From a virus (lineage: Duplodnaviria > Caudoviricetes), in the IMG/VR virus record IMGVR_UViG_3300032232_001192, positions 1 to 43,563 of that record: a DNA stretch of 43,563 nucleotides; one strand, written 5' to 3'. The notes under the pieces were generated by a model that did not search any database, had not been told where the DNA came from, and was given only the letters and a program-made list of their open reading frames with translations. Shown here one piece after another: positions 1 to 17,779 of the stretch. A program made the position numbers and the translations under genes. How positions within the stretch are numbered: position 1 is the first letter of the stretch; each line of letters starts with the position of its first letter.

Positions 1-37
1 CTCCGCATCTATTTATTAAGTGGCGGTGTGTTTATAA

Positions 38-425
38 AATGCCACATGATTGATAACAAGGACATGTGGCCAAACCCTGGCTTAGCTAGTTTTTCAGGCT
101 GCTAGAGCGAATGTATTATCGTTTGCAGATAATTGTTTTGCTGTTTCGGCCGGGAAACCCCAACCCTACGGCTGTCGCATTGCCGAGTTGCCGTCTTCAC
201 TATCTCACGCTGTCGAAACCACATCCGGCCCATCAAAAACATTTTATCTTATCGTCCCCTTGATAGTTTACTTAGAGTGTTCAACTATTCAGGCAGTGAC
301 ACACCTACGATAAGCCCTCACTGTCGTTTTCAGCACGTCTGCTTAATTATAAAATGCTTTTGGTGGACCGGGGCGGGAATGATCCGCCGTCCAACATGCC
401 TTCGATCCGAAGGAATTACAACCAT
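38..425 (-). ncRNA. ssrA: Circularly permuted (two-piece) tmRNA gene: acceptor piece ~425-361, intervening segment 360-232, coding piece 231-~38
   Basis: Minus strand: 3' half GAC-GGCGG-ATCATTC-CCGCC-CCGGTCC-ACCA lies upstream of the 5' half GGGCCGG-ATGTGGTTTCGAC. Acceptor stem GGGCCGG/CCGGTCC has G3.U70. Tag ORF 126-94 GCA AAC GAT AAT ACA TTC GCT CTA GCA GCC TGA = ANDNTFALAA*. Outer ends approximate. Confidence 0.93.
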
Positions 426-697
426 CAAATTTCTTCTAACACCACACTTTCCATGCTGTCAGGAAAGAAAGTACGATAACGATGTTGTAGCTCGTACGTC
501 TTCTGCAAAGCGTTGACCTCAGCTAGAAAAGTCTGACGAAGTGCTTCATATGCCAACGCAAAGTTGACTATGGCCTCGTCGTCAGTCTCAGTTACATCGA
601 TACCGACAACCTTGGTGGTTGGTTCTTGAACCACCAAAACTTGGCGATTGGACACCTTACCCTTTAGGTCCTTGTAAACAAATGATTGAAGTTTCAT
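425..697 (-). CDS. hypothetical protein
   Basis: 90 aa ORF downstream of promoter-like TCGACA-N17-TATAAT (~750-723). Confidence 0.75.
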   Translation of the reverse strand: MKLQSFVYKDLKGKVSNRQVLVVQEPTTKVVGIDVTETDDEAIVNFALAYEALRQTFLAEVNALQKTYELQHRYRTFFPDSMESVVLEEI

Positions 698-1650: not shown

Positions 1651-2302
1651 TTGCTAACACGTCTTTTAGTGCTGGAAATTGACTCAGCAATACATCCAGG
1701 CACTTCTGTGCTACATCACGGTGTTCTTTTTGTGTAGCAACATCTACTCTTAGCAAACAGTAGTGAATCCAACTACGAACACTTCCGGCCATGTACAGTC
1801 GGCTGTGTGTCAAGCCTTCTGGTAACACTGCTCTGGCCTGCTCTTTAGCAATGCCGTTTGCCAGTGCCCATGTGTATGCTCGTTTAACTACCCTCAATAC
1901 ATCTTGTTGTTGGGCATCCCAGACTTCTAGTAACTCTTTGTCGTCTGTTTCCAAACTGGCTTGGCGATTCTTTTCGTCTTGCATCCGTGCTTCACGGACT
2001 TCAAAGCCCAAGTCATCTGCACGAGCATATCGCTGGCTAAACTCTTGAAAGGCAAAACTGCGATGACGTAAGATCTGTCGTGCAATGTCTCGTGTGGTAT
2101 TGATCTCAACAACCATGTGAGCCATTTCAAATGGACTCCAGTGTTGATGTTTCACCAGATATTTAAGCAGCTTTGGCGCGGTTTCTGTGTTGAGCTGGTT
2201 ACTTGGATTGCTAACACGGGCAATATAGGCCAACATGTCATTGACAGTTGGAACTTCTGGGATCTTGCTTTCTGTGACCCCTACCAATTTTACAGTGTTC
2301 AA
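1631..2302 (-). CDS. thyX: flavin-dependent thymidylate synthase
   Basis: ThyX motif RHRSFAFQEFSQRY, HWSPFE, AKEQARAVLP, TQKEHR. Confidence 0.95.
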   Translation of the reverse strand: MNTVKLVGVTESKIPEVPTVNDMLAYIARVSNPSNQLNTETAPKLLKYLVKHQHWSPFEMAHMVVEINTTRDIARQILRHRSFAFQEFSQRYARADDLGFEVREARMQDEKNRQASLETDDKELLEVWDAQQQDVLRVVKRAYTWALANGIAKEQARAVLPEGLTHSRLYMAGSVRSWIHYCLLRVDVATQKEHRDVAQKCLDVLLSQFPALKDVLANEISKQ

Positions 2303-4518: not shown

Positions 4519-4619
4519 TGGTAGAAGGGGTGGGAATCGAACCCACATTCGCTGCCTTATCTAGACAGTGCTTACGAGTGTATAAGGCTCGCCCATAGGC
4601 CAATATTAGCAACCCTTCC
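4519..4619 (-). tRNA. tRNA-Ile(TAT)-like with long variable arm
   Basis: GGAAGGG/CCCTTCT-A-CCA, GTGGG-TTCGATT-CCCAC, anticodon loop CTTATAC with C31.A39 mismatch, 101 nt. Confidence 0.7.
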
Positions 4620-14536: not shown

Positions 14537-14788
14537 CTAGGTATTCAGTGGCCATGGTTTAAAGAGGGCCGGCTCTTTGCGGGATAGCTTGTCTACGATG
14601 GGCATTTCCAACACTGGTTTGCCGCCGCCAACCAGCTTGTAATACTTGTGGTATATGGGCAGCAACTTACTGCACAAGTTTTCAAGGTCTCTAACGTACT
14701 GGGTGTCGTGGTTCATGATGGTATCCTCGCTATTTCGTATTATAGCACCATACCTGGCCCCACGCAAATCAAAAATTCTTTTGCTCAT
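14537..14788 (-). CDS. hypothetical protein
   Basis: 83 aa ORF after the terminator; start uncertain. Confidence 0.55.
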   Translation of the reverse strand: MSKRIFDLRGARYGAIIRNSEDTIMNHDTQYVRDLENLCSKLLPIYHKYYKLVGGGKPVLEMPIVDKLSRKEPALFKPWPLNT

Positions 14789-14807
14789 AGATTAAATTTA
14801 GATAAAA

Positions 14808-14845
14808 CAAAAGCCACCATGCCTTTAACAGCAGGGTGGCTTTTG
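14808..14845. terminator. bidirectional Rho-independent terminator
   Basis: CAAAAGCCACC...GGTGGCTTTTG. Confidence 0.8.
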
Positions 14846-16035
14846 AACCGATCGAGTTTTTATTGCCTGTTGAGATTCAGACCACTAGATCCTTTTACAG
14901 CTATGTGGTACCCAACGAGTACGTATTCAGTCATGTTGACCAGGCATTGCGGGGATTTTCCATCCTCCCCACTACAGTATTCTAGTTTACGCTAGCTGTA
15001 CGGATTTAAGTGTTTGGTAGCCCGGTTGACTCCGGGGAAAGTTAGTTTACGGCAACTTCAATCTATCACGTCTGGACTATTAGGCTCCATCTACCCACTG
15101 GTTTTGGTACGCAAGGGGAGAGTCGTAAAACACTCGGTATTGCGGTTTGTTTGACCAACTAGATTTAATTAAACCGTTTACAAGTACAGGCTGTAACTGA
15201 CCTCAGGCACGGATTTTGATGACAGCCGTTGCGTACACAAGTGCAGAGGCTTCGGGCAAGTCTGACGCTACCACACATGATGCGTGTGTATCACAATTAG
15301 TTGGTCATGCTGATTTCATTTTGTAGTCGTTATCAGCAAAGTGACTAGAACATCATTCAGGTTTAGTTCTTACCGTCTCCTAAATCGTAGCGGACTCCGC
15401 TTTTCGGATTCTATATACATCCCTGTAAGGGGAAACGATTTCGGTACTAGATGTTCAATCCTTGTACCAATTCGCTAGTGGGATTCCAGACCCACATTAC
15501 AGGAGTTATTCCTGCTCTTGTTGTTCAGTGTTTGTGGCACTGAGTTAGAAGATAGCTGTATTTAAGGACCTCTTTGTCTGCGAGTTTAACGTCACCTCAC
15601 CGTGGACGAAAGCGTTTACCGTAGCCTGAAAGAAGCTGGTGTGGGTAATGTATTAACCAACATAAGTTGGCCCTCACCATCGATAGCTTAGGGAGTAAAC
15701 CTGTCTGCCGAAACCCCAACAGTACAATCTACGAATTAAACACTTTAGGATTTGGAGAGTAGTGGTTCTACTTTATCTTCGACTGTACCATTTGTTCAGT
15801 TCGACAACGCATAGGGATCAGAGTGTGCCGACTCCAACCACCTAGGATCTAGTTTGGCAATGGGCTAGGTTTACACGATATTCGAAACCAACTGCCACGG
15901 GGCATCTGTGGTTTCTCCAAATTCTAAAGGGTTTGTAGAGGGCTGACACTCGGTGGTGTAACTTCTTGTCAATTAAGTCGTATCACATAGCAGTAATATA
16001 TCGCTGTGACCGCTGACACCCTTTTATCAACGATA
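14846..16035 (-). ncRNA. candidate ~1.2 kb structured non-coding RNA
   Basis: No minus-strand ORF of 60 aa or more; bounded by promoter (16070-16042) and terminator (14845-14808); nested long-range stems. Confidence 0.65.
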
Positions 16036-16041
16036 GAATCT

Positions 16042-16070
16042 ATTATACACTAATGGGTAGTTTCAATCAA
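16042..16070 (-). promoter_or_regulatory. sigma70-type promoter
   Basis: TTGATT-N17-TATAAT with AT-rich upstream element. Confidence 0.7.
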
Positions 16071-16085
16071 GTGTAAATTTTAATA

Positions 16086-16218
16086 TGGTGAGTGGCTTCG
16101 ACCACTCTTGTCAGCCCCTTCCTGGACCTGTCTTTAGCGTGCTGCAGGCTTGCTGAGGACTATCGGTTGCTCCATTTAGCTGAACGCCTCTTGGCGGTAC
16201 TCTTGCGACATTCTGTAT
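16086..16218 (-). ncRNA. putative CCA-terminated small RNA
   Basis: Ends GAGTGG-TCGAAG-CCACTC-ACCA; not a cloverleaf; ORF-free. Confidence 0.45.
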
Positions 16219-16343
16219 TACCATAGTTTAACACACTGCACTATCTAGATGGATCAGTAGCTGTATCGGCCGATTATCTACTATCCCCACCCTACGCTCC
16301 CGTGGACCTTTGGGAATGGCTTGCAGTATGCTAAACTATGGTA
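16219..16343 (-). ncRNA. putative small RNA closed by a 22-bp stem
   Basis: TACCATAGTTTAGCATACTGCA / TGCAGTGTGTTAAACTATGGTA with two G.U pairs on the minus strand. Confidence 0.55.
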
Positions 16344-16413
16344 CCCCTACGGAGAATCGAACTCCGATTACTGGAATGAAAATCCAGCGTCCTGACCGTT
16401 AGACGATAGGGGC
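16339..16413 (-). tRNA. tRNA-Glu(TTC)
   Basis: GCCCCTA/TAGGGGT-A-CCA, D-arm GTCTAACGGTCAGGAC, CTGGA-TTTTCAT-TCCAG. Confidence 0.92.
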
Positions 16414-16640
16414 AGTGCGCTGGTTACGTCTCCAGCGTGACAGAGCCAATCACCGCGACAACCAGGTATATTAGGATCACACCCCCATGGCTAGTGGGTA
16501 GCGGGCATTTGACGCATACCTGCGGTCAACGCTGAGGCGGTTGACATACCCTAAAAGTGGGCGGCGACTAAAGGGCATTGTTCCTTCGCCATTAAGATGC
16601 TATCCAGTTAATACTGGTCTTATATCACCCAACAAACTAT

Positions 16641-16694
16641 ATTATACAGGGTTGACAATCACAATACAAGATCAAAATTGTCAACCCTGTATAA
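16641..16694 (-). promoter_or_regulatory. promoter embedded in an 18-bp perfect inverted repeat
   Basis: TTGTAT-N17-TATAAT inside TTATACAGGGTTGACAAT...ATTGTCAACCCTGTATAA. Confidence 0.6.
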
Positions 16695-17408: not shown

Positions 17409-17594
17409 ATGATTCAACAAGAGTTACGAAGCCCCCTCAAAACCTTTCAAGTACAACCAGACGGCACAGAAACAGTCGAGCTTAGACCACCAACAAGCTT
17501 GATGTTACGAGCGGCCAACCACATAGACCAACTTACAAGAACTATTGAAGTCCTACAAATTGAATTGAGCAACATCAAAGGCGGTGTACAATGA
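17409..17594 (+). CDS. hypothetical protein, first gene of the plus-strand early block
   Basis: Follows promoter TTGCCT-N17-TATAAT (~17356-17384); coupled to the next ORF. Confidence 0.6.
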   Translation: MIQQELRSPLKTFQVQPDGTETVELRPPTSLMLRAANHIDQLTRTIEVLQIELSNIKGGVQ

Positions 17595-17779
17595 GTTATG
17601 TATTTGACCAGGATCAATTGGAAAACATCAAGTGGTGCATTGACAACCACAGCGTTCAAGATGCTTTTCGTGTAGTAAATCATCTAGAACCAAGTGACAC
17701 AATCCCAGTGGATGATGTGGTAGACTTCAATCAACAATTCAACTCTCAATACACTCAGACATTTGGGTGCGGTTACTGA
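17591..17779 (+). CDS. hypothetical protein
   Basis: ATGA overlap. Confidence 0.65.
   Translation: MSYVFDQDQLENIKWCIDNHSVQDAFRVVNHLEPSDTIPVDDVVDFNQQFNSQYTQTFGCGY

Follow-up and report, generated by a model that had tools for sequence, protein, structure and literature searches.

The non-coding unit of about 1.2 kb that we describe here, on the minus strand of a phage genome fragment, is real, but it is a modular mosaic rather than a single giant fold. It brings together two undescribed structured domains, a tRNA-Glu-like core and a small pseudoknotted element that we call module A, in a modular, lineage-specific phage RNA, and we hold this architecture with high confidence. A fuller reading is that the exchangeable modules surround a tRNA-Glu-like cloverleaf in what is likely a 1.2-kb transcript, likely cut near position 15721 to an RNA of about 915 nt, and that the product is predicted to act as an unchargeable decoy; taken as a whole we consider this plausible, if somewhat short of probable.

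The stretch of DNA analysed in full (43,563 nt, hereafter the window) is a 43.6-kb fragment, estimated to be 41% complete, of virus record IMGVR_UViG_3300032232_001192. It carries genes for a terminase, a portal and a fused protease-capsid protein, as well as ten tRNAs and a permuted tmRNA. The capsid protein is 31-36% identical to its T5-family counterparts and lacks any close relative in culture, and the phage appears to belong to a T5-like, uncultured lineage distant from T5. The tmRNA passes the betaproteobacterial tmRNA model (92.6 bits), which hints at a betaproteobacterial host; it is a two-piece molecule (3-453, minus strand) with the tag ANDNTFALAA and about 95 extra nt in the intervening loop in comparison with the Rfam model. 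Freshwater was the main source of the public runs containing the window stretch.

A first-pass annotation of the window had proposed a large structured RNA with its own promoter and terminator and no credible reading frame. The TTGATT-17-TATAAT promoter is indeed present on the minus strand, and its -35/-10 spacing is unchanged in all seven full-length aligned units. The terminator hairpin followed by a U-run is also present, though it is not on the terminator scan's own list. No frame of at least 60 aa lies within 14846-16035, save one opposite-strand frame of 115 aa (14648-14995), which overlaps the last 150 nt of the unit and has no PHROG family; the longest stop-free stretch on the sense strand is 46 codons, and no reading frame is conserved. 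The tRNA-Glu gene of the island sits 300 nt upstream of the unit. The coordinates of the features are collected in Table 1.

Table 1. Features of the non-coding unit and of its surroundings (window positions).
Feature	Position	Strand	Remarks
Promoter, sigma-70-type TTGATT-17-TATAAT	16042..16070	-	transcript start probably near 16035
Module A	15940..16021	-	three helices in ~75 nt; 3-bp pseudoknot pairs 16012-16010 with 15953-15951
Leader domain	15729..15938	-	interrupted stem of ~26 bp, containing the 16-bp stem, closes a structured insert (~150 nt, exchangeable)
Abundant RNA, likely processed 5' end	15720..15722	-	158 nt upstream of the core motif
Presumed mature RNA, 5' part	15605..15722	-	hairpins 15722-15705 and 15679-15637
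Hairpin pair preceding the core	15566..15600	-	second bears a near-invariant A-rich loop (AAAGAA in homologs, AAAGAG here)
Core	15473..15564	-	AAAUAC linker and tRNA-Glu-like four-way junction
Variable middle region	15160..15472	-	exchangeable stem-loops, some window-specific
Clade-specific 3' region of hairpins	14850..15160	-	
Intrinsic-terminator-like hairpin (14845-14808) and U-run	14800..14845	-	11-bp stem, 77/77 cells paired
tRNA-Glu(UUC) gene, same island	16339..16413	-	tRNA nearest to the core model
Module A, second copy, upstream of tRNA-Glu	16559..16630	-	68.9 bits

Seven close homologs were assembled from two of three viral loci and eight of nine metagenome loci (five distinct). Six of the seven are full length or nearly so, with units of 1.08-1.27 kb. 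When these sequences were aligned we observed that they gain, lose and swap whole domains, and that the 16-bp stem of the leader domain, the terminator and many local hairpins are kept or covary. The folding energy of four 280-300-nt pieces gave z-scores of -1.55 to 0.0, against -1.05 to +0.95 for coding controls, which is not above chance, and the case for structure therefore rests on covariation.

Such covariation bears directly on the single giant RNA, held together by nested long-range pairings, that had been proposed. Every complementary pair that had been listed is literally present in the window, as is the repeated hairpin-loop sequence CGTAAACTA, found at 15051 and 14991, and the 16-bp stem (15929-15914 with 15758-15743) holds in the homologs, with 105 cells paired, 7 unpaired and one compensated column. 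Over the eight aligned homologs, the outermost long-range pair (15491-15485 with 15076-15070) has 47 cells paired and 9 not, without compensation, and its 3' strand covaries with 15089-15086 instead. The next one (15482-15477 with 15099-15094) has 45 paired and 3 not, again without compensation; its first strand is part of the cloverleaf, where it forms the T-arm and the acceptor 3' strand, and these covary locally. For 15470-15464 with 15110-15104 only 14 cells are paired against 42 unpaired, for the inner 10-bp helix (15307-15298 with 15161-15152) the counts are 51 and 29, and the GAACATC/GATGTTC pairing is found in the window alone. The nested pairs fail, and the modules are found apart in related phages, so that of the structured RNA call there remains a transcribed-looking, structured, non-coding unit, while its single-fold architecture is abandoned. 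The fallback of two or three tandem RNAs came closer, and we read it as module A, a leader domain with a long stem and a probably processed RNA of about 0.9 kb with the tRNA-Glu-like core at its centre. The tRNA ancestry of the core and the link to hammerhead-led units had no place in that annotation and are added here.

The loop 15715-15711 is complementary to 15104-15100 in 39 of 40 cells, with no covariation. The middle region is closed by 15394-15390 with 15098-15094, and inside it 15386-15382 covaries with 15316-15312. A long-range pair between 15745-15738 and 15015-15008 (63/64 cells) was set aside, its sole change favouring a local stem.

We then have the distant relatives. The exact patterns of the close clade reach close relatives only, and when 50,697 annotated phages were searched by BLAST with the unit or with its halves, nothing real was returned. 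A weak match in a related phage disclosed an element of about 140 nt, placed before a terminator and having one motif in common with the unit. A search with this motif gave 37 viral loci, of which 34 have the same context, and a looser pattern gave six more among 13 new loci; the remaining 3/37 and 7/13, judged by eye, are chance matches and were dropped before all counts, and chance also accounts for L008, L011, L012, L021 and L063/L064. Five of the carriers are near-complete genomes (99-128 kb) with the same fused capsid gene, at 56-70% identity. When the close-clade profile was compared with the distant units, the only shared parts were the 5' module (module A) and the central core, and within this T5-like lineage some 30 distant phages have just these two modules in common with the unit. 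One phage (G016) has the core alone, as an element of about 140 nt ahead of a terminator, and the island of another (G018) contains two module A copies, a tRNA-Glu, a hammerhead motif and an RNA of about 500 nt, with no core. Among 20 records picked by their capsid or neighbouring protein, all of them fragments (≤76%), one has the core, and one relative is without the RNA at the syntenic site. In 185,579 GTDB species genomes, searched with a single pattern, we found no true prophage copy; both pattern matches were judged by eye to be due to chance.

Some of the distant islands have features of their own. In L079 a YrlA-like RNA (1788-1892, plus strand; 33 bits, E 0.0013, below the gathering score) lies just upstream of the core, similar ones occur in L070, L109 and L130, and no Ro60/TROVE gene was found in the complete L079 genome. 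L174 (1501-1609, minus strand; G033) has a second stand-alone degenerate cloverleaf (core model E 5.5e-8), with an 8-bp acceptor-like stem, a U-rich anticodon-like loop and no CCA, uncalled by ARAGORN. A TGACCCTAA box is repeated many times around distant islands, for example in L065, L071 and L106, and also makes up the end of hammerhead stem III and a long stem that closes the 3' domain; in the 43.6 kb of the window there are only two TTAGGGTC copies.

The core spans about 105 nt (15592-15469). Its acceptor stem is short (15556-15553 with 15477-15474) and is followed by a 3-bp D-stem with an inserted hairpin, an anticodon-like arm (15514-15500), a 4-nt variable loop and a T-like arm (15495-15478). 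Among 29 sequences, its 21 pairs are kept in 96.7% of cells and 13 of them show two-sided changes. None of 500 shuffles reached this level of pairing and slid partners were only 37-46% paired; kinship of the sequences can by itself beat shuffles, yet the changes span distant clades.

When the core model was run over the window, the phage's own tRNA-Glu(UUC) came second (26.7 bits, E 0.0015), with the best other tRNA at 12.6 bits, and the two align arm by arm; in G016 the second match of the model was again a tRNA-Glu. We also scored 66 tRNAs at 18 core-consensus positions, which were picked after the match to the window's tRNA-Glu was known: the top eight are all tRNA-Glu, and the mean scores are 13.0 for Glu (n = 10), 11.0 for Ala (n = 4) and 4.0-9.0 for the others. 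T5's own tRNA-Glu has only 8 of the 18 positions. Like a functional tRNA-Glu, the core has a four-helix cloverleaf, U11-A24, the 13-22-46 positions and a 4-nt variable loop, this last feature having been part of the rule by which cores were parsed. What it keeps is the inner junction, that is U8, C9, the U11-C12-U13 D-stem, A14, A15 and the variable loop with A46; U13 faces a purine at 22, which is A and not G, and there is no residue 47. PMC9976931 gives U11-A24, the absence of residue 47 and the 13-22-46 triple as identity determinants of tRNA-Glu, the anticodon bases being the strong ones. These anticodon bases are unconserved in the core.

It lacks, in contrast to a functional tRNA-Glu, a 7-nt UUC/CUC anticodon loop, the elbow and a 7-bp acceptor with a free CCA. 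In the 30 parsed cores, which include three mis-parsed rows (L004, L014, L015) and leave L082 unparsed, the D-loop GG was never found, the canonical T-loop motif occurs once, three T-loops carry inserts of 27-60 nt, and the anticodon-like arm varies from 11 to 32 nt with a free loop sequence and no conserved 7-nt UUC/CUC loop. The acceptor stem is 4-5 bp with a bulge, a bulged A lying in this closing helix; it is embedded in the longer RNA, and CCA stands within 7 nt of it in 2/30. The near-invariant AAAGAA hairpin loop and the AAAUAC linker before the junction have no tRNA counterpart. Judged from these alignments, the core is a tRNA-Glu-like cloverleaf that retains the D-stem/variable-loop junction and not the anticodon, the elbow or the CCA end, and it presumably derives from a duplication of the neighbouring tRNA-Glu gene. 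Here is a tRNA-derived domain in which anticodon, elbow and acceptor end were lost while the junction stays under selection.

Module A is the second conserved element. Its helices comprise 16 pairs, of which 94% are kept and 13 covary (27 sequences), and 28 of the 32 copies pair the pseudoknot in full, where shuffling gives 9.4 on average and 16 at most, the register having been chosen per sequence to favour pairing. It was found in all five near-complete carriers, mostly as a pair, and lies far from the core in some genomes (17 kb in G035, 10 kb in G016). Rfam gave no family at E ≤ 10 for 15930-16035, and the module A model no match in four cultured T5-family records. Module A thus appears to be an independent, undescribed class of small pseudoknot RNA, and, covarying well, it may be a new ribozyme or an RNA that binds protein.

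How the unit is processed was approached through its relatives. A type I hammerhead motif, called with a purpose-made pattern (CUGANGA, GAAA core, stems I-III), is present in 26 of 32 distinct distant loci, with a predicted cut 65-239 nt before the core. The window has none on either strand, nor do the seven close loci, and yet their likely 5' end is equally far from the core; two routes would lead to apparently the same end, with a hammerhead in the relatives and none here. Self-cleaving motifs beside phage tRNAs or stable RNAs are also known for type I hammerhead and theta ribozymes (for theta, bioRxiv 10.1101/2023.06.13.544163), and in PMC6765202 a processing role of bacterial hammerheads appears only as a suggestion. 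In another island (L175 1680-1750, plus strand; G016) a hammerhead motif has its predicted cut, by eye, a few nt before a tRNA-Tyr, which suggests trimming of a tRNA 5' leader by a ribozyme.

Expression was followed in runs that had been found with this stretch, through contigs that come from relatives and are unstranded, so that depth is a weak measure. In an RNA run (X13) the depth over 14840-15911 is 62-955, as against 18 in the terminator bin and 0-8 on the flanking genes; in X17 it is 3-60 against 0-3, and a probable DNA run (X7) is without such a step. In three freshwater studies (X13, X17 and X20) the RNA contigs from relatives break off at 15721-15722, at a depth of 303 in X13, and neither X13 nor X17 has a loose end there; in X20 the contig past the stop is what we take to be sequencing adapter. 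A DNA contig (X11) runs through 15722, and contigs of another variant cross it, beginning near 15870-15910. The RNA runs have no cover over 15929-16215, a contig hole that proves nothing. These data give a weak-to-moderate hint that the 5' end near 15721 is processed, which would give an RNA of about 915 nt (771-954 in the clade). Since no ribozyme was found in the window unit, a host endonuclease is, we infer, the simplest cutter. HDV-like and pistol folds tried by eye around 15722 did not fit. RNA contigs of two studies that cover the upstream module A copy (16559-16630, minus strand) end about 6 nt inside its 5' end, and such ends could reflect a start, a cut or a fork of the assembly graph.

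We compared the unit with known RNAs. Rfam, both at gathering score and at E ≤ 10, gave tRNAs, the tmRNA and chance matches only; the first-pass annotation had seen no group I/II intron or RNase P core, and the Rfam models, that of OLE included, agree with it. Its suspicion of novelty is supported as well, with no Rfam, GOLLD or ROOL match for the unit: the GOLLD model (RF02032), which covers the conserved 3' domain of that RNA, matches nothing at E ≤ 10 in the record of the window and nothing at gathering score in 20 distant and six close loci, and the ROOL model (RF03087) none in the window, although in one of the searches no control genome gave a signal. In the open-access literature that was searched, we found no description of this RNA. 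Five of its motifs are absent from the six supplementary files of PMC10690425 (10,006 viral RNA candidates) that were searched, and the short modules may be among the unnamed candidates of that collection.

The core resembles the cloverleaf mimics that have no working anticodon, such as mascRNA, YrlA, the tRNA-like domain of tmRNA and the viral tRNA-like structures. These retain the D-loop/T-loop elbow or the acceptor end. Unlike them, the core has the inner junction only, lies within a long RNA and has two additions, an invariant hairpin loop and a linker. As for mascRNA, it is described as not aminoacylated and yet acting on GlnRS (PMC9976931).

With T5 the likeness is one of setting: T5 RNAX (719 nt) and RNA1-3 are stable RNAs of the tRNA region, some of them tRNA-like, in a distantly related phage (NC_005859 annotation). 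Homology to RNAX was considered and rejected, as nhmmer gave no match and the core model reached at best 13.6 bits on T5; over four cultured family members there is one weak match (E 0.047). RNAX itself (L176 16849-17567) contains a tRNA-like element (38.3 bits), and TTTTACG with a complementary CGTAAAA as in the 3' region of the window.

How might the unit work? A duplicate of the neighbouring tRNA-Glu gene would have become the core. The unit would be transcribed as 1.2 kb and cut near 15721 to yield an abundant RNA of about 915 nt, a host endonuclease doing here what the hammerhead would do in the relatives, and the flanking stem-loops and the terminator would stabilise this RNA and carry passengers. 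The core would then capture a host protein that reads the D-stem and the inner corner of tRNA-Glu; glutamyl-tRNA synthetase, glutamyl-tRNA reductase, a tRNA-modifying enzyme and a tRNA-attacking defence protein are candidates. Because anticodon, elbow and CCA are unconserved, the ribosome, RNase P, EF-Tu and anticodon nucleases (at their cutting site) are unable to account for the conservation. A protein reading the D-stem and the inner corner could account for it, as could a role that is structural only. GluRS, YqeY, Ro60/TROVE and RtcB families were not found in any of the five near-complete carrier genomes, and the partner would therefore be a host protein. Against such a decoy, the kept positions also build the inner fold of tRNA, and structure alone could explain them; moreover, the AAAGAA loop and the AAAUAC linker are unexplained by it. 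We thus propose only tentatively, and with more doubt than belief, that the RNA is an unchargeable and uncleavable tRNA-Glu decoy on a stable, abundant scaffold. The same reserve applies to the broader proposal that T5-like freshwater phages turned a tRNA-Glu copy into a new RNA class which, keeping the inner junction only, would ride on a highly abundant scaffold, made of exchangeable domains and released by ribozyme or nuclease, and disarm or capture a host reader of tRNA-Glu, module A being a second undescribed class.

The functions might instead reside only in the ~140-nt core and in module A, within a T5-style cluster where one precursor bears small independent RNAs and the 0.9-kb piece is a processing intermediate or a carrier. 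Module A and the core alone are common to both clades, the core stands alone in G016 and follows a YrlA-like RNA in L079, and cross-module long-range helices show no covariation in the window clade; T5 itself has seven short stable RNAs and RNAX among its tRNAs (NC_005859). Yet single RNA contigs span the middle region (joints 15110-15471, 15084-15211 and 14861-14968, plus one contig of 600 nt from 15722), although a contig is no proof of a single molecule. Also, the core is without the elbow that would direct excision by RNase P, and the 3' region is strongly conserved inside the close clade. We consider this arrangement unlikely, while giving it a real chance.

The likeness to GOLLD and ROOL raises a further explanation. 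These are also large, apparently abundant non-coding RNAs of phage tRNA islands with no assigned function (PMC12286853 and PMC5737381), and the first of these sources describes RNA-only cages formed by kissing loops. Copies of the processed RNA could accordingly form an RNA-only multimer, with the tRNA-derived junction as its structural hub. The size (771-954 nt in the clade), the tRNA-island location and the apparent abundance would fit, and so would the one invariant UUUACG loop (15129-15124), which faces two complementary CGUAAA loops, at 14991-14986 (48/48 cells) and 15051-15046 (45/48). These loops are kissing-loop candidates, but they show no covariation, one CGUAAA loop is lost in L017, and they are not common to distant carriers. 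ROOL-type junctions and pseudoknots over the whole ~580 nt were not found, only module A and the core being common across clades. Here, unlike in GOLLD and ROOL, conservation is limited to the ~105-nt tRNA-derived core and does not extend over an ornate fold of several hundred nt, modules shuffle among genomes, and a hammerhead sets the 5' end in relatives; the module content is too variable for a closed cage, and neither the GOLLD nor the ROOL model matches. A multimer is, in our opinion, improbable.

The core or module A could also be a new catalytic or ligand-binding RNA, invariant unpaired bases forming an active pocket on the scaffold derived from a tRNA and module A being self-cleaving in the manner of twister. 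The core has invariant single-stranded bases in a compact junction and the bulged A in its closing helix, the islands are rich in hammerheads, and the covarying pseudoknot of module A goes with a helix order that resembles the permuted P5 topology of twister. However, no twister or other ribozyme model matched (twister RF02684: 0/4 records at E ≤ 10), the positions that presumably correspond to the catalytic G and the cleavage-site A of twister vary in module A, and RNA contigs run through its upstream copy. We see only a slim chance for catalysis or ligand binding. Finally, a decayed tRNA gene with neutral spacer, or an undetected coding region, would agree with the insignificant folding-energy z-scores and with a middle region much of which is freely gained and lost, but is scarcely credible in view of the strong compensatory change across phages whose capsids are only 56-70% identical, the missing conserved reading frame and the contig depth step in RNA runs.

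GOLLD, ROOL and T5 RNAX all lie beside tRNA genes with their functions unassigned, and the present family offers a handle that they lack. Its sole lineage-wide domain, the ~105-nt core, has a recognisable ancestor and a natural stand-alone form, which makes a short list of partners directly testable for the predicted tRNA-Glu decoy.

The surroundings of the unit showed some further features. Directly downstream, on the minus strand, lies an 83-aa gene of no known family (14537-14788), whose weak homologs follow RNA islands in several distant phages (6/14 records). Between the promoter and tRNA-Glu there is further ORF-free structured sequence (16090-16345, minus strand), with a 22-bp stem (16219-16240 with 16322-16343) whose 5' arm overlaps the 3' end of tRNA-Glu; L004 inserts about 380 nt on each side. 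A perfect 18-bp inverted repeat (16642-16694) overlaps the promoter region of the upstream RNA island. Elsewhere in the window, we observed a tRNA-like match (4522-4619, minus strand; 39.8 bits) that ARAGORN does not call, and a similar one is present in L004 at 17569-17668.
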